A stretch of DNA of 64,000 bases from Candidatus Woesearchaeota archaeon (GTDB lineage: Archaea; Nanobdellota; Nanobdellia; Pacearchaeales; GW2011-AR1), in the NCBI GenBank assembly GCA_964639615.1, contig CAZXHH010000001.1, forward strand, positions 68,092 to 132,091. Direction: 5' to 3'. The translations under genes were made by a program, and so were the position numbers. Below are positions 6,109-64,000 of the stretch, piece after piece. How positions within the stretch are numbered: the first letter of the stretch is position 1; the number at the start of each line of letters is the position of its first letter. The notes under the pieces are model-generated. The model searched no databases. It was not told where the DNA came from and worked only from the letters and a program-made list of their open reading frames with translations.

Positions 6109-6429
6109 ATGAAACCAATTCAACTTAATGAAGAAAATTTCGAAAAAGAAGTCTTAAACAGTGAAATTCCTGTAATAATAGACTTTTTTGCTGATTGGTG
6201 CATGCCGTGTAAAATGATGGCTCCAGTATTTGAAAATTTGAGTGAACAATATAAGGGTAAGCTTAAATTTGCAAAAGTAAATACAGACGAACATCATGGA
6301 ATAGCAGCAGAATTTGGAATCCAAGGAATTCCTGCTTTGGTTATAATGTCAAAGAACAAAGAGATAGGAAGAATTGTAGGATTTGCATCTGAGTCAGTAT
6401 TGAAAAATAAAATTGATCAAATTTTATAA
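6109..6429 (+). CDS. trxA: Thioredoxin (atypical CMPC active site)
   Basis: FFADWCMPCKMMAPVFE thioredoxin fold motif; 106 aa. Confidence 0.8.
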   Translation: MKPIQLNEENFEKEVLNSEIPVIIDFFADWCMPCKMMAPVFENLSEQYKGKLKFAKVNTDEHHGIAAEFGIQGIPALVIMSKNKEIGRIVGFASESVLKNKIDQIL

Positions 6430-6430
6430 A

Positions 6431-7351: not shown

Positions 7352-7695
7352 TTAATTTTGCGTGTAAGCAATTTGACCTTGAAGAGACAATCAGGTGCAG
7401 TTTTAGTTTAACTAAGGCAGAATTTAAGATTTTTAAATTTCTTATGAAAAATAATACTAAAAGATTTGAGAGTAAAGAACTTGCAAAAGAATTACATTTA
7501 GAACTTTCAACTGTTCAAAGATCAATGAAAAAAATGAGTGAAAATGGAATAATTATTCGTTCAAAAGTTAACTTGGAAAATGCAGGATATACTTATTCTT
7601 ATTGTATCTGTGAAAAATATAAGATAAAAAACAAGGTTAAAGAGATAATTCAGAGTCAAACTAATAAATTTGAAGAAGAAATTGAGAAGTGGTGA
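7348..7695 (+). CDS. Small winged-HTH transcriptional regulator, third gene of trx operon
   Basis: KELAKELHLELSTVQRSMKKMSENGIIIRS helix-turn-helix pattern; overlaps trxB stop. Confidence 0.45.
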   Translation: MINFACKQFDLEETIRCSFSLTKAEFKIFKFLMKNNTKRFESKELAKELHLELSTVQRSMKKMSENGIIIRSKVNLENAGYTYSYCICEKYKIKNKVKEIIQSQTNKFEEEIEKW

Positions 7696-7785
7696 GTATT
7701 TGTCCTAACCTCAAAACAATATATTTATAAGTATTTTTGAGTAGTTTTCTTTGTACATTTTCGTTGTAAAAACGAGATTTTTACT

Positions 7786-7866
7786 GCCCACTTCGCATAG
7801 AGGTATTGCAGGAGATTGCTAATCTCCGCCCTTCGGGGCTCGCAGGTTCGAGTCCTGCAGTGGGCG
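7786..7866 (+). tRNA. tRNA-Ser (GCT)
   Basis: Acceptor GCCCACT/AGTGGGC, anticodon stem GGAGA/TCTCC, loop TTGCTAA, long variable arm GCCCTTCGGGGC, T-arm GCAGG-TTCGAGT-CCTGC; followed by T-run. Confidence 0.85.
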
Positions 7867-7906
7867 TTTTAATAACATATATAAATAATTAATTCCTAGA
7901 TTTTTG

Positions 7907-8065
7907 ATGCCAATGGTTGACTTAGAGGATGATGGCTCAATAGAAAGAGCAAAGAAAAAAGATGGAGTTATGCATAAACATATTTATTGTCAAAAATGTG
8001 GACGTCCTAAACCATGCAGAAATCCTGATTGCACACAGTTACATTGCAATTGCAATACTCTCTAA
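7907..8065 (+). CDS. Unannotated 52-aa Cys-rich zinc-ribbon-like protein
   Basis: MPMVDLEDDGSIERAKKKDGVMHKHIYCQKCGRPKPCRNPDCTQLHCNCNTL translated by hand; below ORF-track size cut-off. Confidence 0.35.
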   Translation: MPMVDLEDDGSIERAKKKDGVMHKHIYCQKCGRPKPCRNPDCTQLHCNCNTL

Positions 8066-13798: not shown

Positions 13799-14596
13799 AT
13801 GAAAAAAAATTTAATTGTTGGACTTACATTTATTTTATTCTCAATACTTTTATCTTTTGCTAATGTATTTTTGATTACTGGAGCTGTTATTGGAACAAAT
13901 ATTTCACATTCTCTTATTACTATCTTAACTCTCGCTTTTTTTCTTTTAGGATTATTGTTTATTAGCAGATTTGGAAAAGGACTTGCAGCACTTGTTCTAG
14001 CTGGAACATTAATTGGAGGGCATGCAATTCATTCGCACAGAGAAAAACAATATTTAGAAGATACAAAAATAACTGCTTCATGGAAAACTGATTTAGGAAA
14101 ATTCCAGAGAACATATAGATGGGATGATGAACTTGATAAAGCTGAAAGAAAATACAAAATACCGAAAGGATTATTGAAAGGGCTTGCAATGAGAGAAAGT
14201 TACGGAGATCCATTGAGGCTAAATGAAGGAGAAGATGGTGGTGCTGGATTGTTTATGTTTCAACCACGGACAGCCAGAGCATATGGATTAAAAACTTATG
14301 GAAAATCTAACAAATCTAGTAAAGACTTGAAACATGGTGAACAATTAAAAGACCTGGTTAAGAAATATAAGAATGATTATAGAAAATTAGCAGAGATAGA
14401 TGAAAGATTTGATACTGAAAAATCTGCAGAAGCTGCTGCTAAATATCTAAGAGAAGATTATGAAAGATATGGTTCTTGGGATGATGCTCTCTCGGCGTAT
14501 AATCAAGGAACACCTGCACCTAGGTCTGATACTACTGAACACGTTAAGGCAGTTAAAAGATATCAGAAATACTACAAAAAGAGAGATAAGCATTAA
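13799..14596 (+). CDS. Membrane-anchored lytic transglycosylase (SLT domain)
   Basis: Three N-terminal TM helices then LAMRESYGDP...GAGLFMFQP...AYNQG, matching SLT catalytic E-S ... GLMQ ... AYN motifs. Confidence 0.6.
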   Translation: MKKNLIVGLTFILFSILLSFANVFLITGAVIGTNISHSLITILTLAFFLLGLLFISRFGKGLAALVLAGTLIGGHAIHSHREKQYLEDTKITASWKTDLGKFQRTYRWDDELDKAERKYKIPKGLLKGLAMRESYGDPLRLNEGEDGGAGLFMFQPRTARAYGLKTYGKSNKSSKDLKHGEQLKDLVKKYKNDYRKLAEIDERFDTEKSAEAAAKYLREDYERYGSWDDALSAYNQGTPAPRSDTTEHVKAVKRYQKYYKKRDKH

Positions 14597-24132: not shown

Positions 24133-24342
24133 CTAATCATCATACTCGGGGATTACTTTTTTATAAAAAATGCTTAAAATCCAACGAGTAATTACTCCAA
24201 AGACAATTATTCCTATAAAAAACATAATCCAACTCATTACATTATCCAAATCTGAATATAAAAGTTCTATACCTAAACCTATTATTCCTCCGAATAATGC
24301 TCCAATTAATAAATAAATCATTTCTTTAGTTGGTTTCTTCAT
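24133..24342 (-). CDS. Small two-TM membrane protein
   Basis: 69 aa. Confidence 0.3.
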   Translation of the reverse strand: MKKPTKEMIYLLIGALFGGIIGLGIELLYSDLDNVMSWIMFFIGIIVFGVITRWILSIFYKKVIPEYDD

Positions 24343-25547
24343 TTTATTTCTAAATAAGATTTAATCTCTAAATTACAAATTTCATCTGTGCAACCAAAAC
24401 TAGCATATTTGTAAGGATTAAAAGTTTTTTCAGAATTTGCAGATATCTTAAATGTTTCTACCTCGGTTATATCTACTCCAAGAATAGAAGAATATAGTCG
24501 ATACATCACATTAACAGAAATATCCTTATCTTGATTATTTGCTATCCTAATCCTTGAGCCATTATTTTGAACGATTAAAAGATTATTCTGGTAGTCTTGA
24601 ACTCCTCTTTGGTATTGTTCTAAAGATATCTCTTTTAATTCATTGCTTTTATAATCAAACCACCTACCTGCTCCACAATCACAATCAATAATCTTAACTC
24701 TTATATCAATAGAATAAGAATTTAAAATCCAGGGAGAACAAACCTTCGTGCAAAAGTCTCTAACTATTGGAGAACTATCTCCTTGTGCATACCAATCTAT
24801 TCCATTAAAACTTTGGATAATCGTCTCTAGATTATTTTCTGAATTTTCTTCTTTTTTATTATCTGGATAAAATAGAATTATTCCAAGAATTATTAAAATA
24901 ATTCCAAGAATACCCCCAATTATCCTTCTCTTTTTTTTCTTTCTTCTCTCTGTATCTCTTCTTTCTTTTTCCTCTCTTCTCATTTGTTCTTCTTTAAACA
25001 ATCTTTTTCTTTTCTCTTCTTCTTTTCTTTCAATCTTTCTTTTTTCTTCTTGTAATTTTTCATATTTTTCTTTTTCTTCTTTTCTTTTTTCTTCTTGAAG
25101 AGATATTTTTCTTTCTTCAACTAATCTCTTTTCTTGCTTAGCTTTTGTTTCCCAATATAATTTTTCTCTTCTTTCTTTTGTTAGCGTGGCCTCTTGAAGA
25201 ATAATTTCTCTTTTCTCTGGAAAAGTTAGTTTCTTATTTCCTTCTGCTCTTTTGTTTATTAAAAAAATATCAATTTGTTTAGAATTTTCAAATTTCCTTT
25301 TTTTTCTAATTTGTTCCCCATGTATCCAATCATGCTCTTCTTTTGTGCAAATATAAAGATTTTTTATGGAATTATTGAATGTCTCCCCATCAATATGGTG
25401 AACAATATAAGCACCAAATGGTTTTTGATATTTGTCTCTGTCTTTATCATAGATATATTTTTTTGCTACTTCTCTACTTTGCAGATTTCCTTCTTCTGTA
25501 AGTATGTATTCATTGTTAGGATTATTTCTAAATCTCTCTAACGGCAT
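24339..25547 (-). CDS. HNH nuclease domain - K/E-rich single helix - TM - Cys-containing ectodomain protein
   Basis: YIVHHIDGETFNNSIKNLYICTKEEHDWIH (HNH motif); ~90-aa EEKRKEEKEK... charged segment; TM IIGGILGIILIILGIILF; C-terminal 190 aa with 6 Cys. Confidence 0.5.
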   Translation of the reverse strand: MPLERFRNNPNNEYILTEEGNLQSREVAKKYIYDKDRDKYQKPFGAYIVHHIDGETFNNSIKNLYICTKEEHDWIHGEQIRKKRKFENSKQIDIFLINKRAEGNKKLTFPEKREIILQEATLTKERREKLYWETKAKQEKRLVEERKISLQEEKRKEEKEKYEKLQEEKRKIERKEEEKRKRLFKEEQMRREEKERRDTERRKKKKRRIIGGILGIILIILGIILFYPDNKKEENSENNLETIIQSFNGIDWYAQGDSSPIVRDFCTKVCSPWILNSYSIDIRVKIIDCDCGAGRWFDYKSNELKEISLEQYQRGVQDYQNNLLIVQNNGSRIRIANNQDKDISVNVMYRLYSSILGVDITEVETFKISANSEKTFNPYKYASFGCTDEICNLEIKSYLEIK

Positions 25548-27829: not shown

Positions 27830-28615
27830 ATGAAAAAGAGAGAATATAAAATTATTCTGACAATTTTAATTCTTATATTTTTTACAATAAATTACAACAA
27901 TCTTGATAGCTTTGTAACAAAAAACTTTGATAATCAAGAAACAATTGTTGTTGAAAGAGTTATTGATGGGGATACGCTTGTTGATAGCGAAGGAATTCAT
28001 TACAGATTATTGGGAATTAATACTCCAGAAAAAGGAGAGCCTCTTTATTTAGATGCAAAAAAATTTCTTGAAGAAAAAACAATAAATCAAACAATAATTG
28101 TAGAAAAAACTAAAAAGGATAGATATGATAGAGAACTTGCATATTTTTATCTTGGAAAAGCAAATATTAATGAAGAAATTGTAAACAAAGGGTATGCAAA
28201 TTATTATTTTCCTGAAGGAAAGGATAGGTATTACTCAACTTTTTTGGATGCTTGGCTGAATTGCATAGATTCTAACATAAACTTGTGTGAAAAATCAGAA
28301 GATAAATGCTCTTCATGTATCCAATTAACAAAGTGGGATTTTGAAAACCAAGAGATTAGTTTTTACAATAAATGCTCTTTTGACTGTAATTTAAATGGTT
28401 GGACATTAAAAGACGAGGGAAGAAAAAAATTTGTTTTTGAAAACTATATATTAAAGGGCTTAAATTATGTTAATGTTATTGTTGAGAATAAAACTAATTC
28501 TGCAAATAATCTTTATTGGAAAAATGAAGAATATGTCTGGACCTCTTCAGGAGATAGTTTCTTTTTAAGAGATGGAGAAGGAAAGTTAGTGCTTTGGGGG
28601 ACTGAGAATTATTAA
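27830..28615 (+). CDS. Secreted staphylococcal-nuclease (SNase)-like nuclease with C-terminal lamin-tail-like domain
   Basis: Signal/TM N-terminus; VIDGDTLVDSEGIHYRLLGINTPE thermonuclease motif; C-terminal NGWTLKDEGRKKFVF LTD-like. Confidence 0.65.
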   Translation: MKKREYKIILTILILIFFTINYNNLDSFVTKNFDNQETIVVERVIDGDTLVDSEGIHYRLLGINTPEKGEPLYLDAKKFLEEKTINQTIIVEKTKKDRYDRELAYFYLGKANINEEIVNKGYANYYFPEGKDRYYSTFLDAWLNCIDSNINLCEKSEDKCSSCIQLTKWDFENQEISFYNKCSFDCNLNGWTLKDEGRKKFVFENYILKGLNYVNVIVENKTNSANNLYWKNEEYVWTSSGDSFFLRDGEGKLVLWGTENY

Positions 28616-29353: not shown

Positions 29354-32300
29354 ATGGAGAAAAGGGAAAAGTGCTGGAAGTTATTTCTAATTAACATACT
29401 AATTTTAACACTAAGCTTTTCTTTTATTAGTGCTTCTACTTCACTAACAAGCATTAATGTTAATCCTTCAATTACAAATTCTAATCCAGTTCTAACTGTA
29501 ACGCTTAGTGAGAGTAATTCTTCATACCTAATTTCTGGTGCAGAATATTTTATTGATAGTGCTGGTGTAAGTGGAACAGGAAATAGTTTAACTGCTTCAG
29601 ATGGAGCATATGATGAACTAACTGAAGATACAAGTGCTAGTATAGATCTAACAGGTTTAAGTCAGGGCAGCCACACAGTTTATGCTCACGGATTAAATAA
29701 CAATTCTGAATGGGGTGCTTTTTCTACAGTCAGTTTTACAAAAGATACAATTATCCCTACACTAACCTCAATGCAGATTACTGGAGCATATGGTGCTACA
29801 AATAAAATTTCTCCTCAAAATGCAGATGGAAAGTATGATTCTGTTAGAATTATTATGAATTCAAGTGAATCTGTTGATTGGGGAAAAACATCAGTATTAA
29901 ATTCTACAGGACAGGAAATAAAATATTTCAATGGCCCTTCTGGTTATATTAATTCAAATATAGAAACTTGGGATGGAAAAAATAGTTCTGGAAATTATGT
30001 CCTTGATGGAGTTTACACAATTTATACAAATATAACAGACCAAGCAGGAAACTCAAATTTAATCTATGTGGGTTCAGTGATTATAGATAATACTGCTCCA
30101 ATTGGGACAATCACAAAAGGAACTCCTATAATAAGTAACAATGATTTAACACAAGAAATAACAATAAATTATAATGAAGTTATGGATACTTCTTATAGAC
30201 CACTGATTAACTTTACAAATAATATTGGAGAGATTAGAAGTACTGGAGGAAGTTGGAGTACAAATCAAATTTGGACAGAGAATTTCCTTGTTGAAGATGC
30301 AGATGAAGAAACAACAAACGTAATTATTTCTAGTTCATTAGCTAAAGACCTTGTTGAAAACTCAGAAGCTACTTCTATTTCAGCTTCTTTTTCTATTGAT
30401 ACAAAAGCTCCTGTTATCTCTAGTTTGCAAATTAATGCTTCAGATATAGAAATAAATAATGATAATGATGTAACAATTTCAGCAGACATTAGCGAAGGAA
30501 TGTCTACCCCAATAAATGTCTGGCTTGAAGGAAACTGGACTGGGACTTCTGCAAATAACACTTTAAGTTCTTCTTCAGGACATTATAGTTATACTATAAG
30601 CAAAACTCAACTTTCAAATCAGGAATATGTGGGATGGAGAATTTTTACAAGAGATTCTAGAGGAAATATTAGAAGTACAAGCATAAATGGTTTTTTAGTT
30701 AAAAATAGAGCTCCTTTATTTATTCCTTCTATAAATAATATGTCTTGGATTGAAGATGGAGGTTCAAAGACAATTAACTTATCTGATTATTTTTATGATT
30801 TAGATAAAGACATTCTTAATTATACTGCAACAGTTGTTTCTAACAGAGGACCAACATCAGATCCAAATCCTCTTGGGGGAATAACAGTTACAATAAACAA
30901 TGCAACAAAAATTGCAACAATTTCATCAACCTCAGATTGGAATGGTGATGGAACAATTATATTTTATGCTTGGGACTTTGTTGGAGGATACAATAGGAGC
31001 AATACAGTTTATGTAACAGTTATTGCTGATGATAATGAAGCTCCAACACTAACAAGTTCTTTGAGCCCAGTAAACTTCAGTGAAGATACAACTTTCTCTT
31101 TGCAATTATTCTGTGATCCAAATGACCCTGCACAAGTTTGCTTAAATTATAGATATGATGCATCATATATTGATTATAATTCAAATCTAACTGTATCTGT
31201 AAATCCTTCAACAGGACAGGTTACATTAAGTCCAAAATTAAATTGGAATGGGTTAACTTATGTTAAATTTCTTGCTGATGATAATGGAGTTCCTTTAGAA
31301 ACAGGAAGTTTAGTTGTTAGAGTAAATGTAACTCCTGTAAATGATAATCCTATATTAGACGCTCCTGATATAAGCATGATAGAAAATTCTGCTGCACCTT
31401 CTCCAATTAATTTGCTTTCTTATACAACGGATGTAGATAACCAATTAACTTCTATGGTTTATAATTTGGTTAGTCAATCAAATACAAGTTTAATTAATTG
31501 TAGCTTAAATGTAAATACAATAAACTGTGGAGCACCTGCATATAACAAATATGGAATTTCAGATTTAATAGTTAGTGTAATAGATGGAAGTGGTGGCAGT
31601 GATAGTCAAAAGATTACTATTGAAGTAAAAAAGAATCATGCTCCAACAATAAGATCATATTTTCCTGTTGAAAATCCTTTGATAAGAACTGGAAGGCCCC
31701 AGACTTTTGTACTTGTTGCTCAAGATGTTGATAATTTAACAGCTTTAAATTATGTCTGGAAAGTAGATGGAACAATTGTTCAGAATGGAATAGATAATAA
31801 TTATATATTTACACCTTCAGCTGAAAGCAATTATATTGTTAGTGCTGAAGTAAGTGACGAAGTTCCAAACACAGTAACAAAAAGCTGGACAGTTAAGGCA
31901 ACTACTTATCCAATTACAACAGAGTTTAATGGTGATGAAACAACAAATCTTTCAAATCCTTCTTTAGATTTAACAAATGTAAGTTTAGTTTTAGAAAATT
32001 CATACGGTAAAATTGAATTTTTATCTCCTGTTGATTTAACAAAGGCTTGGGACTTGGACAATAATGTTGAAATTTCTTCAAACGGATTAGTTGCTGTTAA
32101 TACTCAGTTATATCCTGCCTTAAATAAACCTGCAAGAATTACACTTTATGGATTGAGCTATAGTTCTTTACCTAAAGTTTATTATTCTTCGAGCTTCACA
32201 ACTTCTCCATTGACTGTTCAACAAGAATGTTCTTCACCTAGATGTAATTTACTCAATTATACTGCATTCCCTACATCTGCTGGAGAGGTTACATTTACTG

Positions 32301-33376
32301 TCTCTCAATTCAGTTCATATGCTGTTAAAGGAAGTGGAATTAATTATGATATTAACAAACTTGATTTAGACAAATGTGAAAACGGAGTCCAAGGAAATCT
32401 AACTGTTGAAATAAAAAATCCTGATGAGGATGAATCTTTTGGACCTGGAGCAGAAATTAAGATTAAATTAAAAGTATCAAACGATAATTCTTTTGATGAT
32501 AAATTCATAGCCAAAGGAATTTTATATAATTTAGATGAAGAAGATGAAGAGGAAACAGAAGAAAGTGATTCTGTTGAAATAGAAACAGAAGATTCAGAAA
32601 CAATTGAATTCTCATTAATTGTCCCAGAAGATATGGATGAAGAAGATGATTATGTTCTATTTGTTAAAGTCTATCAAAAAGGAGAAGAGGAAAATCAATG
32701 CAATTATCAAATAATTGATTTATCTCTTGAAAGAGAAGAACACAAAGTTATAATTAATGATATTGTTTCTGATTTAGAAATTAATACTGGGGAAAAATTA
32801 AACCTTGATATTGATTTAGAAAATATTGGAAGTTCAGACGAAGATGAAGCATATATCAAAATAACAAATAGCGAATTAAAATTAAATGAAAAAACAGATA
32901 CATTTGAAATTGAGAAATATGGTGACGATAATGAATTGACAATAAGCCATAGCATTTTAATTCCACAAAACGCAGCAGGAAAAGAATACACTTTAAGAGT
33001 AGAGGTATTTTATGAAGATGGAAGCACTTTCCAAAATTATATAATAAATGTAAATAATAAATCAATTATAAGTTATGTACCTACAGAAAACTTAATTTAC
33101 TTATCTTCTTCGCAGTCTTCAGGATCTGGAAGTTCTAGTCCTAAAACAATTACTGCATCAAAAACAACTATAACAGGAAAAATAACTGAAAAAGCAGAAG
33201 TTGAAGAAGAGGCTGCTCTTAATGTAAATCTAGATACAGAAGATAAAATAGCTTCTGAATTTAGTACAAATAAGAGTTCAGTAAAAGTAAATTATAATTA
33301 TCTTCCGATAGTGCTTGGTATCGGTATATTGATTTTTGTTTTTGCAATAGTATATCTTTTAATAAAGAAAAGATAA
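29354..33376 (+). CDS. Giant (1340 aa) surface protein: signal peptide, Ig/cadherin-like repeats, acidic segment, Ser/Thr linker, C-terminal TM anchor (S-layer/adhesin candidate)
   Basis: N-terminal signal peptide; PVNDNPILDAPD cadherin-like motif; dozens of N-x-S/T sequons; DEEDEEETEESD acidic run; SSSQSSGSGSSSPKT linker; LPIVLGIGILIFVFAIVYLLIKKR anchor. Confidence 0.6.
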   Translation: MEKREKCWKLFLINILILTLSFSFISASTSLTSINVNPSITNSNPVLTVTLSESNSSYLISGAEYFIDSAGVSGTGNSLTASDGAYDELTEDTSASIDLTGLSQGSHTVYAHGLNNNSEWGAFSTVSFTKDTIIPTLTSMQITGAYGATNKISPQNADGKYDSVRIIMNSSESVDWGKTSVLNSTGQEIKYFNGPSGYINSNIETWDGKNSSGNYVLDGVYTIYTNITDQAGNSNLIYVGSVIIDNTAPIGTITKGTPIISNNDLTQEITINYNEVMDTSYRPLINFTNNIGEIRSTGGSWSTNQIWTENFLVEDADEETTNVIISSSLAKDLVENSEATSISASFSIDTKAPVISSLQINASDIEINNDNDVTISADISEGMSTPINVWLEGNWTGTSANNTLSSSSGHYSYTISKTQLSNQEYVGWRIFTRDSRGNIRSTSINGFLVKNRAPLFIPSINNMSWIEDGGSKTINLSDYFYDLDKDILNYTATVVSNRGPTSDPNPLGGITVTINNATKIATISSTSDWNGDGTIIFYAWDFVGGYNRSNTVYVTVIADDNEAPTLTSSLSPVNFSEDTTFSLQLFCDPNDPAQVCLNYRYDASYIDYNSNLTVSVNPSTGQVTLSPKLNWNGLTYVKFLADDNGVPLETGSLVVRVNVTPVNDNPILDAPDISMIENSAAPSPINLLSYTTDVDNQLTSMVYNLVSQSNTSLINCSLNVNTINCGAPAYNKYGISDLIVSVIDGSGGSDSQKITIEVKKNHAPTIRSYFPVENPLIRTGRPQTFVLVAQDVDNLTALNYVWKVDGTIVQNGIDNNYIFTPSAESNYIVSAEVSDEVPNTVTKSWTVKATTYPITTEFNGDETTNLSNPSLDLTNVSLVLENSYGKIEFLSPVDLTKAWDLDNNVEISSNGLVAVNTQLYPALNKPARITLYGLSYSSLPKVYYSSSFTTSPLTVQQECSSPRCNLLNYTAFPTSAGEVTFTVSQFSSYAVKGSGINYDINKLDLDKCENGVQGNLTVEIKNPDEDESFGPGAEIKIKLKVSNDNSFDDKFIAKGILYNLDEEDEEETEESDSVEIETEDSETIEFSLIVPEDMDEEDDYVLFVKVYQKGEEENQCNYQIIDLSLEREEHKVIINDIVSDLEINTGEKLNLDIDLENIGSSDEDEAYIKITNSELKLNEKTDTFEIEKYGDDNELTISHSILIPQNAAGKEYTLRVEVFYEDGSTFQNYIINVNNKSIISYVPTENLIYLSSSQSSGSGSSSPKTITASKTTITGKITEKAEVEEEAALNVNLDTEDKIASEFSTNKSSVKVNYNYLPIVLGIGILIFVFAIVYLLIKKR

Positions 33377-56947: not shown

Positions 56948-57068
56948 GGTGACTTATTATTTTTTTATTTTCTTTTAAATTTAATATTTTTTATTTACTC
57001 TTATTCTATTTTACTTTTATTTTATATTCAACAAAAAGCTATATATAACCTATTTTGCGATTAATTTG

Positions 57069-58070
57069 ATGACAATCGTTTTAGGAATTGAATCAACTGC
57101 ACATACATTTGGAATTGGTATTGTTAAAGATGGAAAAATATTAGTAAATATAAGAGATATGTATACTACTGAAAAAGGTGGAATAATTCCTTCTGAATCT
57201 GCAAAGCATCATGCAAAAGTCTCTCATGAATTATATTCTAAAGCTCTTGAAACTTCTGGGATTAAAGAAGATGAAATTAATGCAATTTCATTTTCACAGG
57301 GACCAGGACTTGCTCCTTGTCTTCTTGAAGGAATGAGATTTGCAAAAGAACTTGCAATTAGATTAAAAAAACCTCTTGTAGGAGTTAATCATTGCGTTGC
57401 ACATTTAGAAGTTGGTGCAATAACAGGTGCAAAAGATCCTGTTATGCTTTATGCATCTGGTGCAAACACTCAAGTAATTGCTTATGCATCTGGAAAATAC
57501 AGAGTATTTGGAGAGACATTAGATGTTGGTGTTGGAAATTTTATAGATAATTTCGCGAGGTATGCAGGAATAGGATTTCCCGGAGGACCTATAATTGAAA
57601 AACTTTCAAAGGAGGGTAAAAATTTGATTGAACTTCCTTATAAAGTAAAGGGGATGGATGTTGCACTTTCTGGAATTCTTACAAATTTAAAACAAAAAGT
57701 AGAATCAAAAAAATATTCCATTGAAGATTTATCTTTTTCTCTTCAGGAAACTGTTTTTGCAATGCTTGTCGAGACAGCTGAAAGGGCTCTTGCACATACA
57801 GGAAAAAATGAACTTTTGCTTGGGGGAGGAGTAGCTTGCAATTCGAGACTTCAAGAAATGTGCAGAATTATGTGTGAAGAACGTGAAGAGAAAACAAATT
57901 TCTTTTGCCCTGAAAGAGGCGTCCTAGTAGATAATGGAGCAATGATTGCATATTTAGGAGAAATTATGTTTAATACAAAAAAGATTCCTTTTTCTAAAGA
58001 AGAAATTGAGAAAATTGACATAAGATCTTCTGAAAGAACAGATGATATAAATGCATATTGGAAAAAGTAA
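57069..58070 (+). CDS. kae1: tRNA N6-adenosine threonylcarbamoyltransferase Kae1
   Basis: TIVLGIESTAHTFGIGIV, HCVAHLE metal-binding His pair, ASGANTQ; 333 aa. Confidence 0.85.
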   Translation: MTIVLGIESTAHTFGIGIVKDGKILVNIRDMYTTEKGGIIPSESAKHHAKVSHELYSKALETSGIKEDEINAISFSQGPGLAPCLLEGMRFAKELAIRLKKPLVGVNHCVAHLEVGAITGAKDPVMLYASGANTQVIAYASGKYRVFGETLDVGVGNFIDNFARYAGIGFPGGPIIEKLSKEGKNLIELPYKVKGMDVALSGILTNLKQKVESKKYSIEDLSFSLQETVFAMLVETAERALAHTGKNELLLGGGVACNSRLQEMCRIMCEEREEKTNFFCPERGVLVDNGAMIAYLGEIMFNTKKIPFSKEEIEKIDIRSSERTDDINAYWKK

Positions 58071-58100
58071 TTTTAAAAAGATAATTCCTATTAATATAGA

Positions 58101-58823
58101 ATGAATAAAAGGGGTTCTCAGGTTGAAATGGTAATTTCATTTATGATATTCATAACTTTCTTATTTTTTGTTTTTGCAGCTGCAAAAAATCCATTTGGAA
58201 TAAAAAATGATAAGGAAGGTCTGTTAGAATATGTGGATTTGCAAATTCAAGAACTAGCTTCAGCAGATTTAGAGACAGTTACTATTAATCTTTTAACTCC
58301 AACGGTGCAAAACTGTATTGAATTGGATGATGCAATTTTAGATTTAAATATTAATTCTGGATTTTCCAAAGGAAGTACTGGATTAAACTACAATATTTAT
58401 ATCTCCTCTAGTGATCCGAATGATTTGAGGATTATGAGAACAGGAATTTCTGATAATTTTATAAAAATTTATTCTTCCCCTGTCTTTGAATCGCTTCAGA
58501 TAAATTCTGATGCTTGCCAGATATTAATTCCGGATGTAAATTATGAAATCGGTTTTACAAAAACTCAAAGATATATTTTTCAGGATGAAGTTCTAAGTTT
58601 AATTTCTCAATATCCTTCTAGTTATGAAACACTAAAGACAAATTTGAAAATTCCAAAAGGAACTAATTTCGGATATGGTCTTAAATTGGCAAATGGAACT
58701 ATATTTGAAACTCATGGAGAGGAAGATTCTTCTAATAGCATATACATAAGTGAAAATCCTGTATTTTATGTTGATGATAAAGGAAATATTTTGGCTGGAT
58801 ATCTGAGGGCAAAAATATGGTAA
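58101..58823 (+). CDS. Pilin-like secreted protein (class III signal peptide-like)
   Basis: MNKRGSQVEMVISFMIFITFLFFVFAAA. Confidence 0.4.
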   Translation: MNKRGSQVEMVISFMIFITFLFFVFAAAKNPFGIKNDKEGLLEYVDLQIQELASADLETVTINLLTPTVQNCIELDDAILDLNINSGFSKGSTGLNYNIYISSSDPNDLRIMRTGISDNFIKIYSSPVFESLQINSDACQILIPDVNYEIGFTKTQRYIFQDEVLSLISQYPSSYETLKTNLKIPKGTNFGYGLKLANGTIFETHGEEDSSNSIYISENPVFYVDDKGNILAGYLRAKIW

Positions 58824-59272
58824 AAGACTTTCTTAAACAAAAAAAAGCATGGATTAAACTAATGGAAGTTTTCCTATCTATAGTTCTTATTATAGGAATT
58901 GTTTTAGTGCTTCCAAATGTGAATAATTTTTCAGGAGAAAAAGCTCAAAGAGAAGAGATATTCTCTAAAGAAGTTGCAATACTAAGAGATGTTCAACTAA
59001 ATGATACACTTAGAACAGAAATTTTTTCTGCTGGACTTCCTCCAATAGAGTGGCAGGGATTTGAAACTTCTCTTCCATTAACGCAAGCAAGAATCATTGC
59101 TTTAACTCCCTCGAATTATAAATGTGAAGCAAAAATATGTGATTTGACTAGCTCTTGTATTTTAGAAATAAATTCAAAGAATAGTGTATATGCCCAGGCA
59201 GTAGTCTTCTCTGCAGATAGTACAACTTACTCTCCCAGACAATTAAAATTATTCTGTAGTCAAAAGGAATAA
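58817..59272 (+). CDS. Pilin-like secreted protein
   Basis: KKAWIKLMEVFLSIVLIIGIVLVL; overlaps upstream gene stop. Confidence 0.4.
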   Translation: MVKDFLKQKKAWIKLMEVFLSIVLIIGIVLVLPNVNNFSGEKAQREEIFSKEVAILRDVQLNDTLRTEIFSAGLPPIEWQGFETSLPLTQARIIALTPSNYKCEAKICDLTSSCILEINSKNSVYAQAVVFSADSTTYSPRQLKLFCSQKE

Positions 59273-59400
59273 TTTTAATTGAATTTTATATGAAAACAAT
59301 TGTTATCAAATAATCCCCATCAATCGATTATCATAACCCTTAATTAATTATTCAGATTAATAAATATCTTCGTTAACTAAACTCTCTTTAACACAAAAAA

Positions 59401-60540
59401 TCATCCTTTCCAATTTATTAATGGGACAATATGTCTTAGAACTTTAACACTGCTTTTTTGCATTCCAATTACTTTATGAATATCTTTGTATGCTCTTGGA
59501 GCTTCATCTATAATTTTTTCTGAAACTGTTCCTTTAATTCCACTCATACTTTTTTTAAATTCTTCAATAGAAATTTTTTCTCTTGCTTCTTTTCTGCTAA
59601 GAGCTCTTCCTGCTCCATGAGAAGAGGAATTTAAAAATTTTGAATTACCTAATCCCTCAACTAAAAAAGACCCGTCTCTCATATTTCCTGGTATAACTCC
59701 TCTTTCTCCTTTTTTTGCTGGAGTGGCTCCTTTTCTATGTATAAAAAATCCTTTTTCATAAATTGCATGATTATGATTTTTGTTTACCCACAATTCTGTT
59801 TTAATTTTCTCTCCTAAAATTTGCTCTAAAACTTCAATTACTTTGTAGCTCATTTCTAATCTATTCAGCAAAGCATATTCTAATGCAAAATTTAAAACAT
59901 TAAGATACTCTTTTCCTAATTTAGAATTTGCTTCTAAAGGATATGTTTTTTCATAATCTTTTTTGCTGTTAGAAGCTGAAATCATATATCTTTCTGCTAA
60001 ATCGTGACCTAAACCTCTGCTTCCAGAATGAATAATTAACCAAACTTCTTTTTTTGAAAACCCCAATTCTATAAAATGATTTCCTCCCCCTAAAGTTCCC
60101 AAATGTTTTGTAGCTGAATTTTTAATAAAACTTAGAATATCTTTATTGTATTCTCCTTTTTCAAATTCTTCAATTAATTCCTTGAGCTTTTTCTTTGTCT
60201 TTTCTGATATTTTGTTTTTATCTGCAGTATTTCCAAGTCCCATTGGTATTTTTTTTAGGACTTCTGTGTAAATTTTATCTGTATTTTTCTTGACTTTTTC
60301 AAGAATATCCTTCCCTTTTATCCTAACAGCAATCATACCGCAACCAATATCAAATCCTACCCAAGAAGGCACAATATAATCTTTAGTCTCCAAAACAGCA
60401 CCTATTGGTGCCACATATCCTTTATGGGCATCTGGCATTAAAGCTGCAGCTGTGACAAATTTCTCTGAGTAACATTCTTTAAACTGACGTAAAGTTTCCT
60501 CATCTGCATTTAAAGAGTAATCAAAGATTTTCTTTTCCAT
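59401..60540 (-). CDS. rtcB: RtcB-family RNA ligase (short form)
   Basis: PDAHKGYVAPIG, GGGNHF, HNHA, IPGNMRDGSF, HGAGR conserved RtcB motifs. Confidence 0.75.
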   Translation of the reverse strand: MEKKIFDYSLNADEETLRQFKECYSEKFVTAAALMPDAHKGYVAPIGAVLETKDYIVPSWVGFDIGCGMIAVRIKGKDILEKVKKNTDKIYTEVLKKIPMGLGNTADKNKISEKTKKKLKELIEEFEKGEYNKDILSFIKNSATKHLGTLGGGNHFIELGFSKKEVWLIIHSGSRGLGHDLAERYMISASNSKKDYEKTYPLEANSKLGKEYLNVLNFALEYALLNRLEMSYKVIEVLEQILGEKIKTELWVNKNHNHAIYEKGFFIHRKGATPAKKGERGVIPGNMRDGSFLVEGLGNSKFLNSSSHGAGRALSRKEAREKISIEEFKKSMSGIKGTVSEKIIDEAPRAYKDIHKVIGMQKSSVKVLRHIVPLINWKG

Positions 60541-60655
60541 AAATAGAACTTGCTTTCAAAACTTATAAAATGTTCGAATTACTGTAAAAATGGCTAAAAA
60601 TGGGTATTTAAGGGTATACAGAAACCTTTAAATATAACTACTACATAGTTACAAT

Positions 60656-62398
60656 ATGGTAAAAGCAGGTAAAACTTTAGGAAATTTCTTTCGTGCAGGA
60701 GCATTCTTTTTAGCTAGTGCTTTAATTCCAGCTTGTACTAGCTGTGAAAAAGAGAATTTTCCTCCTGTAGCAGGTATAGAAGTAAGCCCAAAATCAGGTG
60801 AAATCCCTCTTGAAGTGAGAGTAAAAGTCACAGGAACAGATGTAGATGGTGTAGGAGACATAAAATCATATAATCTATTTGTGAACAATGAGAAAATAAA
60901 AAGAAGTTATCCAATTGATACTACAATTACATTTACAGAATCTGGAATTGTAAATGTATATGGGCAAGTAGTTGATTCAAAAAATCAAAGTGATATGACA
61001 GAAACAAATTCTATTGAAGTTTATGGAAAGCATTTTATAGACCAATCTGCTAGCTTAACCGACGATGTAAATATAAAATATGATGCAACTCTTTTTAGAG
61101 TTCCCGAAGCAGAATTAAAAATAAAAAAAGATGGAACAGATTTTATAACAAAAAAAATAACAGATGTTAATCAAACTGGAAAGGATTATGAAAAAACTTT
61201 CACTTCATCTGATGGATTAACAAAAGGAGATTATGAATTTACATTAAAATCTGAAGATTTGGAAAAGAAATCTTCTGTTAATATTCCTAATTATAAACCA
61301 ACTGTAAGCCAAACCTCTCCTGTAAATTTTGATGAAGAAACAGATACAACAGCCTTGCTAAAATCTGATTTTAAAGATAAAAATCTTGAAGATATTAGTA
61401 ATATTAATTATACAAAAGTCACATCTATAGACGGAAAAACAAAAGCTACACTATTGCCTGGAAATAAATTGAAAATAGAAGGACTTCCAAATCAAACTGG
61501 AGCTTATCAAATTGAAATTGAATTTGGAAGTGAAACAGGAGGACTTGAAAAAACAGTTTTAACAGGGAATATAATTGAAGATAAAAGAATAGAAATTAAT
61601 CCTTTTGTTCAACCAAATGACAGCACATTGAATTGGTATGGTTCTGGAGATGTTGATAATAATAATATAGTAAATTCTCAAGATGCAACAAAAATAACTG
61701 AATTAATAAATGGAACTTATTCAAATCCTTCTGATTTAAGATTAAAAGATAGAGCAGATGTTAATGGAGATGGTGTTGTAAATAATCAAGATAAACAACT
61801 TCTTGAAAATAAATTAAATGGTATAATACCTTATCTGCCAGGAGAGTGGAATAAACTGCAAACTCGTGCAGAAAGAGAAGATTGGCTTAAGAAGATGCTT
61901 AAGATTGATGAAGTTAGTGAAATTTCACCATTTCCTGGATGGGATTGCACGCAATATGCTACACAAACTTTTATTAATTTTCATGGAGTTGGAAATCCAA
62001 CAGATATAACAAGATTTTTAGAAGCTTATCCTTATGATTTTTCAAAAAACGGAAGATTTAATTTGCCGTTGTATAAATTAAGCATAATTGAATTTGATTT
62101 AAATGATAAAATAATTTCTGGACATGCAATGAACACAATAGCATTGGGAAATAATATATTAAATTGGAATGATTTATGTAATGTTGAACCTCAATTTAAT
62201 CAAATAAATGTTCAACCAGGAGAAGCTTATCTAATTGGAATAAATTCAAGTTTATATATAAAAGGTACACCTACAAAACTAAAAGTTGGGGAAGATGTTA
62301 ATTTAAGCGAATTTATTAAATATTTAATCAAAAATAAAATTCTTAGCGATGGAATAATTTTAAATAATCCAAATCTAAAAATAATAACTCAAAGATAA
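60656..62398 (+). CDS. Secreted lipoprotein-like protein: beta-sandwich (PKD-like) repeats, two dockerin-like Ca-binding repeats, C-terminal transglutaminase-like Cys peptidase domain
   Basis: Signal LASALIPACTSC; DVDNNNIVNSQD and DVNGDGVVNNQD dockerin-type loops; GWDCTQYA (Cys), SGHAMN (His), NWNDLC (Asp) in transglutaminase-like order. Confidence 0.5.
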   Translation: MVKAGKTLGNFFRAGAFFLASALIPACTSCEKENFPPVAGIEVSPKSGEIPLEVRVKVTGTDVDGVGDIKSYNLFVNNEKIKRSYPIDTTITFTESGIVNVYGQVVDSKNQSDMTETNSIEVYGKHFIDQSASLTDDVNIKYDATLFRVPEAELKIKKDGTDFITKKITDVNQTGKDYEKTFTSSDGLTKGDYEFTLKSEDLEKKSSVNIPNYKPTVSQTSPVNFDEETDTTALLKSDFKDKNLEDISNINYTKVTSIDGKTKATLLPGNKLKIEGLPNQTGAYQIEIEFGSETGGLEKTVLTGNIIEDKRIEINPFVQPNDSTLNWYGSGDVDNNNIVNSQDATKITELINGTYSNPSDLRLKDRADVNGDGVVNNQDKQLLENKLNGIIPYLPGEWNKLQTRAEREDWLKKMLKIDEVSEISPFPGWDCTQYATQTFINFHGVGNPTDITRFLEAYPYDFSKNGRFNLPLYKLSIIEFDLNDKIISGHAMNTIALGNNILNWNDLCNVEPQFNQINVQPGEAYLIGINSSLYIKGTPTKLKVGEDVNLSEFIKYLIKNKILSDGIILNNPNLKIITQR

Positions 62399-62455: not shown

Positions 62456-64000
62456 ATGGTTAAGAGAGGTGTAAGTAATATTTTTTTATTTGTATTTTCA
62501 ATATTCTCATTTATTTTTATTTTAAATTTTGCAACTAGTGCTTGCACTGGAACTCTAAATTGTGGTTTCATAACAGATTCAACGCAGTGCAATACAGAAT
62601 ATGGTGGTGTCTGTCATTGGGACGGTTCTAGTTGTGTAAGTAATTCTGGAGCTACTTGTGCTGATGTTACATCTACATGTGGAACTGTTGGATGCAGCGG
62701 GGGAGGATGTACAAGTGGGGCCTGTTGTGATACTTCAACTGGTCTTTTCAGACCTTCTTATTTTGCTTGTGCTACATTAAATTCTTTTTATTCATGTGCT
62801 GATGGAAATACAATAAAAATCGAGGGAACAACACAATATTGCACTGGAAGTTCTGCTACATGCGATGGTGCAAAAGTTTGGGAAGTATTTGGAACTTATC
62901 CAGATACTTGCACTAGTTATGGGGGATGTGATCAAACTCTTTTTTATCCTAATGCTTGTGTTTGTGCTAGTACTATGATAGAACCCCCTTCAATTTCTTC
63001 TTGTTCAAGCTGTTCTTCAATTGGCAGTCCTGGATGTATAGGTCTTTGTTCTGATAGTGACGGAGGCCAAAATTATCTTCAACAAGGAATAACTTCAGAT
63101 CCTTATTCAACTGTTACGGATTCATGTAGTGGTGGACAATTAGCAGAATACTGGTGCGCTACACCATATGAATCTACTGGAAATTTCTTTTCTTGTTCTA
63201 CACTCTTTGGCTCTTCTCAATATTCTTGTTTAAATGGAGCTTGCATTTGCACTCCTAATTGTGTTGGAAAAAATTGTGGTAGTGATGGATGTGGGGGATT
63301 TTGTGGGGCTAGTGGAAATTGCCCCCCAGGACAAACCTGTACTTCTGGAGTTTGTGGGGCTCCTCCTTGCGTTCCTGCTTGTTATGATGGAAAAGTTTGT
63401 GGGGATGATGGATGTGGAGGAGAGTGTCTTCCAGGATGTTCTTCTGGATATACTTGCAATGCACTTGGACAGTGTGTTTGCTCTGAAACCTGTTCTTCAT
63501 TAGGATATGAATGTGATTTACAAAGTGTTTGTGGTTCTATGGCGTATTGCGGAAGTTGTGGGTCTGGAGAAGAGTGCAATGGAGGATTATGCGTTCCTGA
63601 AACTACTTTCTGCGGTGATGGAAGTTGTAATGGTGTTGAAACTTGTACAACTTGCGCTTCTGATTGTGGGTCTTGCGCAGCAATAGACACTTATTGGGTA
63701 ATAGATAGTTATGAAAAAAATACAGGGGATATTGTAAAAATAAGAAGTGGAAGTTCTATTGTTATGTATGTCCAAGATGATTTTGGATATTCTGCTGGAT
63801 ATAATAATGTAAGATTTAATATTTTTAAAGAAGGAAGTAGCACACCTCTTAATTCAAATCCAATTACAGGGTTTGTAGATAGTTATGGTAGAATTGGCTC
63901 AAATTGGTATTATGTTGATTCATCTTTTTTAACTGCTCTTGGTTCAGGAGGGAATGTTTATTTTGTTATGTCAATTCCTGGAACTTCAATTTCAATAACA
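62456..64000 (+). CDS. Secreted cysteine-rich repeat protein, 3' end beyond window
   Basis: Hand translation from ATG 62456: signal peptide IFLFVFSIFSFIFILNFATSA, then >60 Cys in 515 aa with repeated NCGSDGCGGFCG / VCGDDGCGGEC modules; no stop before window end (not in ORF track). Confidence 0.55.
   Translation, partial: MVKRGVSNIFLFVFSIFSFIFILNFATSACTGTLNCGFITDSTQCNTEYGGVCHWDGSSCVSNSGATCADVTSTCGTVGCSGGGCTSGACCDTSTGLFRPSYFACATLNSFYSCADGNTIKIEGTTQYCTGSSATCDGAKVWEVFGTYPDTCTSYGGCDQTLFYPNACVCASTMIEPPSISSCSSCSSIGSPGCIGLCSDSDGGQNYLQQGITSDPYSTVTDSCSGGQLAEYWCATPYESTGNFFSCSTLFGSSQYSCLNGACICTPNCVGKNCGSDGCGGFCGASGNCPPGQTCTSGVCGAPPCVPACYDGKVCGDDGCGGECLPGCSSGYTCNALGQCVCSETCSSLGYECDLQSVCGSMAYCGSCGSGEECNGGLCVPETTFCGDGSCNGVETCTTCASDCGSCAAIDTYWVIDSYEKNTGDIVKIRSGSSIVMYVQDDFGYSAGYNNVRFNIFKEGSSTPLNSNPITGFVDSYGRIGSNWYYVDSSFLTALGSGGNVYFVMSIPGTSISIT

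Follow-up and report, generated by a model that had tools for sequence, protein, structure and literature searches.

Results

Organization of the locus

The window, by which we mean the whole 64 kb stretch of DNA that was analysed, carries on its forward strand an open reading frame for a multidomain protein, followed directly by a gene for a cysteine-rich secreted protein. The features of this region are listed below, with the evidence for each in parentheses.

60629..60638, + strand: TATA-like box TTTAAATATA, candidate archaeal promoter (read off the sequence)
60656..62398, + strand: complete ORF, ATG start, 580 aa plus stop (syntenic 566-aa ortholog)
60656..60745, + strand: predicted signal peptide with lipobox-like end, aa 1-30, ...LIPAC27TSC30 (hydropathy, ortholog alignment)
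60752..61033, + strand: module A, PKD-like beta-sandwich, sub-threshold, aa 33-126 (PDB profile search, PKD_4)
61034..61375, + strand: module B, conserved, possibly Ig-like, aa 127-240 (19 homologous segments)
61376..61591, + strand: module C, conserved, aa 241-312 (22 homologous segments)
61592..61645, + strand: conserved pre-dockerin linker EINPFVQPNDSTLNWYGS, aa 313-330 (residue conservation)
61646..61819, + strand: type I dockerin, aa 331-388 (PF00404, PDB dockerin matches)
61649-61684 and 61757-61792, + strand: the two dockerin Ca-binding loops, 12 residues each (sequence)
61820..62395, + strand: C-terminal catalytic-type domain of an unclassified family, aa 389-580 (434 cluster representatives, AF2)
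61946-61948, + strand: Cys431, codon TGC, in GWDCTQYA, aa 428-435 (sequence)
62048-62068, + strand: NGRFNLP loop (conserved in family)
62123-62125, + strand: His490, codon CAT, in SGHAMN, aa 488-493 (sequence)
62186-62194, + strand: Glu511-Pro-Gln513 (family conservation)
62456..64000, + strand: gene for Cys-rich secreted protein, running off the window (58 Cys in 515 aa)

Comparison with related sequences shows that the 580-aa frame did not arise by chance: a Ca. Woesearchaeota MAG carries a syntenic ortholog of 566 aa with matching architecture (locus L001, 4852-6552), and the C-terminal domain, at E<=1e-3, recruited relatives that make up 434 clusters at 50% identity, each counted here by its representative. 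All strings quoted in the initial annotation of this locus are present in the 580-aa translation, and the TATA-like box lies ~18-27 nt 5' of the ATG.

Export signal and amino-terminal region

A lipoprotein-like signal had been proposed from the sequence, and the proposal is borne out by the orthologs. We looked for an n-region and an h-region followed by [LVI][ASTVI][GAS]-Cys within about 35 residues, and the protein has a charged K/R n-region, a hydrophobic h-region (hydropathy peak 1.73, aa 16-30) and then ...PACTSC, with ...LIPAC27-TSC30 departing from the consensus at position -3 or -2. Cys30 aligns with a conserved Cys of the orthologs; among 19 close relatives that we inspected, almost every one has [P/A/F/S][S/G/A]C, with lipobox-like ends that include LPSC, FASC, IPSC and FSGC and -1 residues that are typically S, G or A. 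Hydropathy analysis found no second hydrophobic or transmembrane segment. Since the signal peptide ends in this lipobox-like Cys, the protein is probably lipid-anchored at the cell surface. The mature protein has only two cysteines, C431 and the poorly conserved C508.

By profile comparison, the region between the signal peptide and the dockerin consists of a single PKD-like module, itself below threshold, and two others unrelated to it, so the "PKD-like repeats" of the initial annotation reduce to module A (aa ~33-126), and modules B and C are neither PKD domains nor repeats of it. A profile of module A gave near full-length matches to PKD domains in the PDB (2c26, E=0.033; 4l9d, E=0.096; 4jgu, E=0.13; 9p4n, E=0.2), and its consensus covers PKD_4 completely (1-85/85, E=0.018) at 15.5 bits, below the gathering score of 27 (the PKD families concerned are PF00801 and PF18911). 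Module B has as its sole hint an internalin K Ig-like domain (E=0.054), and its HHalign probability of being a repeat of module A is 1.2%. Module C has no significant Pfam match and is unrelated to modules A or B by HHalign.

A dockerin fused to the C-terminal domain

By its sequence, the segment at aa 331-388 is a type I dockerin. It matches Pfam Dockerin_1 (PF00404) over model positions 2-57 of 57 with 32.3 bits, above the gathering score of 22.9 (E=1.2e-7), and the PDB sequence matches of the protein are all dockerins, the best being 8x39 (E=2.2e-7). The two canonical Ca-binding loops noted earlier, DVDNNNIVNSQD (aa 332-343) and DVNGDGVVNNQD (aa 368-379), are present in full, carry D or N at positions 1, 3, 5, 9 and 12, and align to those of solved dockerins. 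The flanking linkers are conserved as well: P320, Y328, G329, S330 and G331 before the dockerin are >=90% conserved in 120 full-length family members, as are P395, W398 and W410 after it in the family alignment. The dockerin and the C-terminal domain are almost always fused, with a dockerin Ca-loop motif <=90 aa upstream of 126 of 154 family domains; 21 of the remaining 28 have no room for one. No cohesin match was found among the ORFs scanned in the 64 kb window or among the relatives' neighbours (25 of 32 families listed).

A conserved Cys(Ser)-His-Glu triad

The relatives of the C-terminal domain come mostly from Woesearchaeota, Pacearchaeota and Nanobdellota archaea and from at least one Bacteroidales bacterium; one family member sits in a genuine Bacteroidales context. 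Three positions stand out in their alignment. At that of Cys431 the residue is Cys in 124 and Ser in 25 of 153 domains, His490 is His in 151/154, and at Glu511 an acidic residue is present in 145 of 149 (Glu 127, Asp 18). The combination [C/S]-H-[E/D] occurs in 139 of 154 domains (CHE 99, SHE 24, CHD 15, SHD 1). Other conserved residues include Gln437, Asn469 and Asn493, and the 25 Ser variants keep these together with His, Glu and Gln513. Because Ser replaces Cys while the remaining conserved residues are retained, we read the exchange as marking a catalytic nucleophile. In the query, 2 residues follow the catalytic-domain consensus before the protein ends.

An AF2 model of the domain built on a 41-sequence alignment is confident (pLDDT 91.1, pTM 0.88); it replaces an unusable earlier run on a 4-sequence alignment (pLDDT 33). 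In domain numbering, the Cys starts helix 45-56, the His lies in strand 100-110 and the Glu ends strand 121-125. A Cys at a helix N-terminus followed by His and Glu on successive strands is papain-like in outline, as read from the predicted secondary structure. Of the catalytic triad in transglutaminase/papain-like order that the initial annotation had described, Cys431, His490 and their order stand, and the conserved acid is Glu511, not Asp. Triads of the GATase1/PfpI type (Cys-His-Glu) and of alpha/beta-hydrolases were rejected, because the order here is nucleophile-His-acid, His and Glu are 21 apart and no strand precedes the nucleophile, which misfits the residue order, spacing and strand features of those enzymes.

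Alternative identities of the C-terminal domain

The family of the C-terminal domain (aa 389-580) is absent from Pfam and the PDB. Pfam gave no match at E<=10 for the domain of the query, of 41 members or of 2 consensus sequences; NCBIfam gave none for the full protein, and PHROGs gave no recurrent family, and no lysin family, for the domain. A PDB profile search with the family returned nothing. Foldseek with the model returned nothing from BFVD and, from the PDB, a best E of 0.26 with TM<=0.25, though the PDB holds many papain-like structures. A word-index profile search with a diverse family alignment recovered 7 close relatives only and no bridging matches, and in the literature on dockerins, T9SS, Por_Secre_tail and transglutaminase in DPANN, Woesearchaeota and archaea we found no description of the family.

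A confident model with neither a Foldseek match in PDB or BFVD nor a profile match anywhere is what might be expected if the domain were not papain-like, being instead a new fold with a chemistry of another kind, or a binding module without catalytic activity in which the conserved residues serve structure or metal binding; the putative triad is, moreover, read from conservation and secondary-structure placement. Against this, exchange of Cys for Ser with all other conserved polar residues kept is typical of a nucleophile and unlike a structural or metal-binding Cys, the His and the acid are conserved in nearly all members, and the predicted layout, in which the nucleophile opens a helix and neighbouring strands carry the His and the acid, is the classic one for such triads. 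We regard this alternative as unlikely.

Somewhat less probable still is a genuine transglutaminase-core enzyme of the PF01841 type, acting as a surface protease or protein cross-linker. The motifs resemble those of a transglutaminase core, as 15 real PF01841 sequences show (C-x-x-[FY]-[AS] after the Cys, H-A-[W/M] at the His and W-x-x-[VI]-[D/E]-P-[T/Q] at the acid), and the order of helix, strand, His-bearing strand and acid-bearing strand is consistent with the AF2 secondary structure. The transglutaminase core claimed in the initial annotation nevertheless finds no backing in our searches: there is no PF01841 match at E<=10, no transglutaminase-like structure was matched by Foldseek in the PDB, and the dominant acid is Glu, not Asp. 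HHalign of the family against the 15 PF01841 proteins gave a probability of 0.4%, at noise level, but this test is weak because a PF01841-versus-PeiP control also failed. A permissive HHalign alignment that placed Cys, His and acid in collinear register was rejected, as the register shifted on trivial reformatting and shuffling of columns or of blocks reproduced its score in 17/200 and 81/200 cases, respectively. The motifs presumably fit CHAP-type amidases about as well as PF01841, which further counts against this identity.

We give a similarly low rating to a CHAP- or NlpC/P60-like cell-wall amidase or endopeptidase directed against the peptidoglycan peptide stems of a bacterial partner. 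E511-P-Q513, with its polar residue two after the Glu, and C-T-x-[FY] after the nucleophile appear to resemble CHAP motifs, and the family is common to DPANN archaea and at least one Bacteroidales genome. The window also encodes a membrane-anchored SLT lytic transglycosylase (13799..14596; PF01464, E=9.2e-17), an enzyme that we regard as lacking a substrate in archaea. These points are opposed by the absence of any CHAP or NLPC_P60 Pfam match at E<=10, of a PHROGs lysin family and of a CHAP or NlpC/P60 structure among Foldseek matches in the PDB; the protein also has no SH3b, LysM or PG_binding cell-wall-binding modules.

Kinship with Pei, likewise raised in the initial annotation, would make the protein a pseudomurein endoisopeptidase (MEROPS C71) that breaches the wall of a methanogen host, and this we consider highly improbable, because beyond the generic Cys-His-acid order and the idea that Woesearchaeota may associate with methanogens nothing speaks for it, whereas PF12386 is silent on the query and all family members tested, PMBR repeats (PF09373) are missing from the query and 112 relatives, a real PeiP scores strongly with both (PF12386 E=6.3e-96; four PMBR repeats), the family is also found in Bacteroidales, and HHalign against PeiP, an insensitive test, gave 0.2% (all HHalign probabilities against PF01841 proteins and PeiP being <=0.5%).

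Secretion tails and a cysteine-rich neighbour

Por_Secre_tail (PF18962) is found at the C-terminus of 64 of 112 family members, and several of those bearing it are archaeal (Pacearchaeota and an unclassified 'archaeon'). To our knowledge, T9SS is not expected in archaea. The query has no Por_Secre_tail and stops at the catalytic domain.

The downstream Cys-rich protein has no Pfam match. In L001 the gene immediately after the ortholog encodes a homolog (phmmer E=1.8e-11), and in L004 another homolog directly follows P0027, a distant member of the family (E=3e-17; 146 aa aligned at 36% identity). The pairing of the enzyme gene with a Cys-rich secreted neighbour is thus conserved at three loci (the window, L001, L004), and it probably extends to L008, which has a 1582-aa giant Cys-rich DUF4215-type protein of similar kind. 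Because the pair is conserved, the Cys-rich protein is a plausible partner or substrate of the enzyme.

Discussion

Sequence comparison indicates that the C-terminal domain belongs to a real, large and previously unannotated family (434 representatives), and the model suggests that it is probably a papain-like hydrolase. The interpretation offered in the initial annotation holds in part. On the whole, we modestly favour the reading that a tiny, Woesearchaeota-like DPANN archaeon anchors this protein at its surface, with a dockerin joined to a Cys(Ser)-His-Glu papain-like hydrolase of an unclassified family. The protein would be exported by its signal peptide and then probably anchored by lipid at the cell surface. 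Three beta-rich modules, the first PKD-like, would follow as spacers or adhesion modules, and the conserved functional unit would lie at the end, where the Ca-binding type I dockerin is joined directly to an enzyme domain of ~190 aa. Its putative triad is Cys431 (Ser in ~16% of relatives), His490 and Glu511 (Asp in ~10%), in a layout that appears to match thiol enzymes of the papain-like Peptidase_CA clan. Such an enzyme would most likely act on an extracellular protein or a cell wall, where it would cleave, or possibly transfer, peptide, isopeptide or amide bonds. The dockerin may either tether the enzyme to a partner or build a Ca-dependent unit with the enzyme domain, and the product of the gene directly downstream is a candidate for partner or substrate.

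The Peptidase_CA clan includes transglutaminase-core, CHAP, NlpC/P60 and Pei domains. With such papain-like enzymes (PF01841; CHAP, PF05257; NlpC/P60, PF00877; Peptidase_C71, PF12386) the domain shares the nucleophile-His-acid order and, in the AF2 model, the helix/strand placement, and like them it is a small alpha+beta domain that is extracellular and stands alongside binding modules. It differs from them in that neither sequence and profile searches nor Foldseek matched it significantly to any of them, in its dominant Glu and its frequent Ser for Cys, and in an extra N-terminal helix, the NGRFNLP loop, two C-terminal strands and the near-constant dockerin fusion.

Dockerin-bearing proteins that are non-cellulosomal are known (Peer et al. 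2009, as cited in PMC10066038). Our protein resembles them in placing a two-loop type I dockerin on a catalytic domain other than a glycoside hydrolase in an organism without a cellulosome; its best PDB match, 8x39, is a dockerin-bearing serine protease. It is unlike them in that dockerin and catalytic domain form a fixed unit in hundreds of proteins, with a conserved linker on each side; the cohesin search above yielded no partner. A second parallel comes from ultra-small CPR bacteria, whose transglutaminase-like cysteine protease CPR-C4 is recognisable by structure alone; it is a cytoplasmic dimer that has a Zn site and uses a Cys-His-Leu(carbonyl) triad (PMC9108980). Like CPR-C4 and vasohibin-type proteases, our family would be a lineage-wide, unannotated Cys-His enzyme of reduced-genome symbionts with no sequence-detectable relatives. 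Unlike CPR-C4, whose structure is not among the Foldseek PDB matches listed, the present protein is predicted to be secreted, dockerin-fused and Cys-His-Glu. Finally, the family members that end in Por_Secre_tail resemble T9SS cargo of Bacteroidota, from which the query differs in ending at its catalytic domain.

A bolder proposal, which we put forward as speculative and rather unlikely, is that the dockerin and the Cys(Ser)-His-Glu domain together constitute a new catalytic family and a fixed two-part module, common to DPANN archaea and T9SS-bearing Bacteroidota, that would act with the giant Cys-rich neighbour, as a non-cohesin docking scaffold or substrate, in an unrecognised surface apparatus with which ultra-small archaea would remodel their own envelope or that of a host.

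For DPANN archaea, which live in dependence on other cells, a chemistry has been assigned to very few surface enzymes. The family offers a clear candidate active site in which C431, H490 and E511 can be mutated, aa 313-580 as a construct, and a candidate partner or substrate. It would also be a case in which dockerins serve systematically without a cellulosome and without a visible cohesin, and it points to a secreted enzyme module that DPANN archaea and Bacteroidota share across the domain boundary.

The gene and its protein

The open reading frame starts with ATG and encodes 580 amino acids, and every string quoted in the initial annotation lies within it. It adjoins archaeal housekeeping genes in DNA of about 30% G+C (the window as a whole), with archaeal T2SSE/T2SSF pilus genes farther upstream.

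57066-58070: Kae1/TsaD, housekeeping gene
59401-60540, minus strand: RtcB, housekeeping gene
60629-60638: TATA-like TTTAAATATA, ahead of the frame
60656-62398 exactly, plus strand: the open reading frame
aa ~33-126: module A, PKD-like, sub-threshold
aa 127-240: module B, no significant match
aa 241-312: module C, no significant match
aa 332-343: dockerin loop 1, DVDNNNIVNSQD
aa 368-379: dockerin loop 2, DVNGDGVVNNQD
aa 428-435: GWDCTQYA, containing Cys431
aa 488-493: SGHAMN, containing His490

The N-terminus consists of K/R residues, a hydrophobic stretch and the sequence LIPAC27TSC30. Since nearly all 19 close relatives that were inspected have S, G or A before the aligned Cys (LPSC, FASC, IPSC, FSGC, MSGC and others), and the protein has no further hydrophobic segment, the lipoprotein-like signal proposed initially is real, with lipidation itself presumptive. 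Between signal and dockerin lie three modules, whose combination differs from relative to relative. Module A gave near full-length profile alignments to PKD domains of the PDB (2c26, E=0.033; 4l9d, E=0.096; ColH 4jgu, E=0.13; KIAA0319L, E=0.2), and its consensus covers positions 1-85 of the 85 in PKD_4 (E=0.018; 15.5 bits, below the gathering score of 27); the one hint for module B is an internalin K Ig-like domain (E=0.054). HHalign probabilities of at most 1.2% do not support the three as mutual repeats, so the “PKD-like repeats” of the initial annotation are better read as one PKD-like module and two other beta-rich modules.

Dockerin_1 (aa 331-388) is the sole Pfam domain recognised, aligned over model positions 2-57 of 57 at 32.3 bits (gathering score 22.9). 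PDB sequence matches are dockerins only (best 8x39, E=2.2e-7), and an NCBIfam search with the full protein gave no match. Both of the Ca-binding loops noted initially are complete, with D/N at positions 1, 3, 5, 9 and 12.

The C-terminal domain defines a large family with a conserved triad

A word-index search found three close relatives; exhaustive HMMER searching with an alignment of these recovered 434 cluster representatives at E<=1e-3, of which 209 reached E<=1e-10 and 37 reached E<=1e-30. Pfam returned nothing at E<=10 for this domain, 41 diverse domain segments or two family consensus sequences; PHROGs gave no recurrent family, and a profile search of PDB sequences no match. As judged from these searches, the domain is a large unclassified family, covered by no known family searched.

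Residue conservation was counted over 154 aligned family domains. Position 431 is Cys in 124 of 153 and Ser in 25, His490 is kept in 151 of 154, and position 511 is Glu in 127 and Asp in 18 of 149; Gln437 (129), Gly444 (144), Asn469 (144), Pro471 (146), Asn493 (124), Pro512 (125) and Gln513 (127) are also strongly conserved. The joint pattern [C/S]-H-[E/D] is present in 139 of the 154 (CHE 99, SHE 24, CHD 15, SHD 1), with His, Glu, Gln and Asn unchanged in the Ser variants. Replacement of Cys by Ser with the remaining apparatus intact is expected of a catalytic nucleophile, but not of a Cys that binds metal or has a structural role; the only other Cys of the mature protein, C508, occupies a poorly conserved position. 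The Cys and His picked out initially are thus present and strongly conserved across the family, and the acid named there as Asp is in fact Glu511.

AlphaFold gave a pLDDT of 33 with four sequences and a confident model with a 41-sequence alignment (pLDDT 91.1, pTM 0.88, 148 of 194 residues at >=90). In the model, where 386 is added to obtain protein numbering, Cys45 is predicted at the start of helix 45-56, His104 within strand 100-110 and Glu125 at the end of strand 121-125, and the rest comprises two further helices, one extra at the N-terminus (18-32) and one at 62-71, together with two strands at the C-terminus. Papain-like thiol enzymes are typified by a nucleophile that begins a helix, with His and then an acid on consecutive antiparallel strands; among the members of their clan are the transglutaminase core, CHAP, NlpC/P60, arylamine N-acetyltransferase and pseudomurein endoisopeptidase (Pei). 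Foldseek found no match at E<0.1 among 350,542 PDB chains (best E=0.26, TM<=0.25; arylamine N-acetyltransferase 8k56 in the noise only, E ~1) and nothing in BFVD. The best reading of the domain is a papain-like clan enzyme.

Relation to transglutaminases and Pei

The initial annotation had called the domain transglutaminase-like. The Cys-His-acid order and, in the model, a papain-like secondary-structure layout agree with this; PF01841 (transglutaminase core), HHalign and Foldseek lent it no support. The family motifs C-x-x-[FY]-[AS], H-A-[WM] and W-x-x-[IV]-[ED]-P-[QT] resemble those of transglutaminases, which is a lead only, and CHAP-type Cys-His-Glu-x-Asn amidases fit them about equally well. 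HHalign of the 154-domain alignment against 15 real PF01841 proteins gave a probability of 0.4% (E=0.15), and the control for sensitivity, in which the PF01841 profile was aligned with the Pei protein PeiP, failed too (0.13%). A permissive run that placed Cys, His and acid apparently in register was rejected: trivial reformatting produced a different register of equal score, and 17 of 200 column shuffles and 81 of 200 block shuffles reached the observed score. Because of the unstable register, the shuffle scores and the failed control, the HHalign tests count neither for nor against remote homology.

The proposed kinship with Pei found no support. The genuine Pei of phage psiM2 matches Peptidase_C71 (6.3e-96) and carries four PMBR repeats, neither of which occurs in our protein or its relatives, and HHalign gave the family a probability of 0.2% against PeiP. 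Membership in the transglutaminase core or C71 is not demonstrated, and C71 is disfavoured. We consider it likely that the domain is enzymatic, with a triad of nucleophile, His and acid; the stronger statement, that the protein is a papain-like clan hydrolase or transferase at the cell surface, we favour by a small measure.

Dockerin and enzyme domain travel together

Pfam recognises Dockerin_1 in 50 of 112 full-length relatives, and a looser Ca-loop motif lies at most 90 aa upstream of the domain in 126 of 154; 21 of the other 28 domains are too near the protein N-terminus to judge. In the family consensus (NPF.QPN..TLN.YGSGDVN...DRADVNGDG...L.G.I.YLPG.WN.L.T..ER..W..KM..ID.T), P320, Y328, G329, S330, G331, P395, W398 and W410 are each at least 90% conserved. 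From these alignments, dockerin and enzyme domain form one unit with variable decoration around it: N-terminal modules and a lipobox in the subfamily studied here, and elsewhere a C-terminal Ig-like region with a T9SS sorting domain (Por_Secre_tail, ending 64 of 112), FlgD_ig (24 of 112) or CHU_C (7 of 112; all Pfam). The cohesin-bearing scaffold suggested initially was not found: no cohesin turned up among the ORFs scanned in the 64-kb window or, at related loci, among large neighbouring proteins, in the matches listed (25 of 32 families).

Several tail-bearing members lie in clearly archaeal (Pacearchaeota/DPANN) contexts, where T9SS and an outer membrane are not expected, and our literature search found no mention of T9SS sorting tails on such archaeal proteins. 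Tail-bearing members noted in this connection are P0048 and the following:

L003 8001-10532: P0112
L004 8001-9731: P0027, adjacent to a tandem paralog at 6280-7962; each has dockerin, Cys/His/Glu domain and Por_Secre_tail
L008 7001-9283: P0030

Recurrent neighbours and distribution

At four loci, some of them with distant enzymes, the gene directly after the dockerin-enzyme gene encodes a Cys-rich secreted protein; three of these proteins are demonstrably homologous, and the one in L008 is weakly similar.

Window 62456-64000, plus strand, to the window end: secreted, 58 Cys in 515 aa
L001 ~6630-7980: homologous to the window protein (phmmer E=1.8e-11)
L004 9945-14489, after the distant P0027: 1514 aa, 156 Cys; N-terminus 36% identical over 146 aa (E=3e-17)
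L008 9376-14124, after P0030: 1582 aa, DUF4215-type (weak matches); weak N-terminal similarity (E=0.007)

Because the gene pair is kept across distant subfamilies, this arrangement suggests that enzyme and neighbour are functionally linked, the neighbour being perhaps a docking partner or substrate.

Genes for RtcB (frequently together with archease) and for two small membrane proteins (~150 and ~240 aa) also recur beside the enzyme gene (window 57066-60540; L001 423-4707; L003 10884-14738; L007; L008); for RtcB and archease this is probably lineage synteny. The small proteins may be pilin-like, since their neighbours in L003 are T2SSF/T2SSE pilus genes. A radical-SAM/SPASM gene recurs as well (L004 495-2663 and 4174-5755; L008 4617-6198; L002 888-2234; L007 8309-9070), with a methyltransferase in L004 and L008; L004, a DPANN contig, adds a small ORF, YcaO and a nitroreductase in a RiPP-like cluster.

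GTDB representative genomes gave two confirmed matches, in a Ca. Woesearchaeota MAG (L001, 63% identity) and a Nanoarchaeota MAG (L002, 40%). In L001 the gene order matches that of the window, running from Kae1 through two small membrane proteins and RtcB (minus strand) to a 566-aa ortholog that shares the signal, modules, dockerin and domain. Other named relatives belong to Ca. Pacearchaeota (on a contig of 486 kb that also encodes RtcB, archease, OapB/C and T2SSE/F), an unclassified “archaeon” and Nanobdellota. One member, P0140, has a genuine Bacteroidales context (DUF3871, DUF4842, PAD_porph, RadC), so the family occurs both in DPANN archaea and in at least some bacteria that have T9SS.

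Other genes in the window

13799-14596, plus strand: 265-aa membrane-anchored protein, SLT lytic transglycosylase domain (PF01464, E=9.2e-17; weak Phage_lysozyme2)
24339-25547, minus strand: 402-aa ORF, HNH_3 endonuclease motif (E=4e-6), C-terminal membrane-like region
27830-28615, plus strand: staphylococcal-nuclease-domain protein; a second ORF of this kind lies in 27.8-53 kb
29354-33376, plus strand: probable surface protein, 1340 aa, sub-threshold FlgD_ig and Long Rib matches

An SLT domain, of peptidoglycan-cleaving type, in an archaeal fragment may point to interaction with bacteria. Both nuclease-domain proteins, one of which is a fusion with a Lamin Tail Domain (SNase E=2.7e-14, LTD E=6e-9), are probably secreted scavenging nucleases, and the HNH_3 ORF is possibly a mobile or defence element. 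The 1340-aa protein matches the Nup98-type autopeptidase S59 below the gathering score (E=5e-6; 27.0 bits against 28.4) and may be an autoprocessing giant adhesin.

Proposed mechanism and significance

The protein would be exported by Sec and probably lipid-anchored at Cys30, with the three beta-rich modules serving as a stalk or adhesin. The dockerin, whose loop chemistry predicts Ca2+ binding, would tether the enzyme to a partner or else stabilise the adjoining domain. Cys431, activated by His490, which Glu511 would orient, would then attack a peptide, isopeptide or amide carbonyl of an extracellular substrate; we infer this catalysis from the conservation pattern and the modelled placement of the three residues. 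Pseudomurein has no support as substrate; bacterial peptidoglycan is conceivable because of the SLT gene, and of the candidates the Cys-rich neighbour lends itself best to testing.

Neither this domain family nor dockerin-enzyme modules of DPANN archaea are described in the literature that we searched. As a concept, CPR-C4 comes closest: this transglutaminase-like protease, from CPR bacteria, is recognisable by structure only (PMC9108980). The protein is probably a papain-like enzyme of a new family with a fixed dockerin; with function and fold assignment still predicted and the genomic context suggestive, the new family itself is solid and testable.
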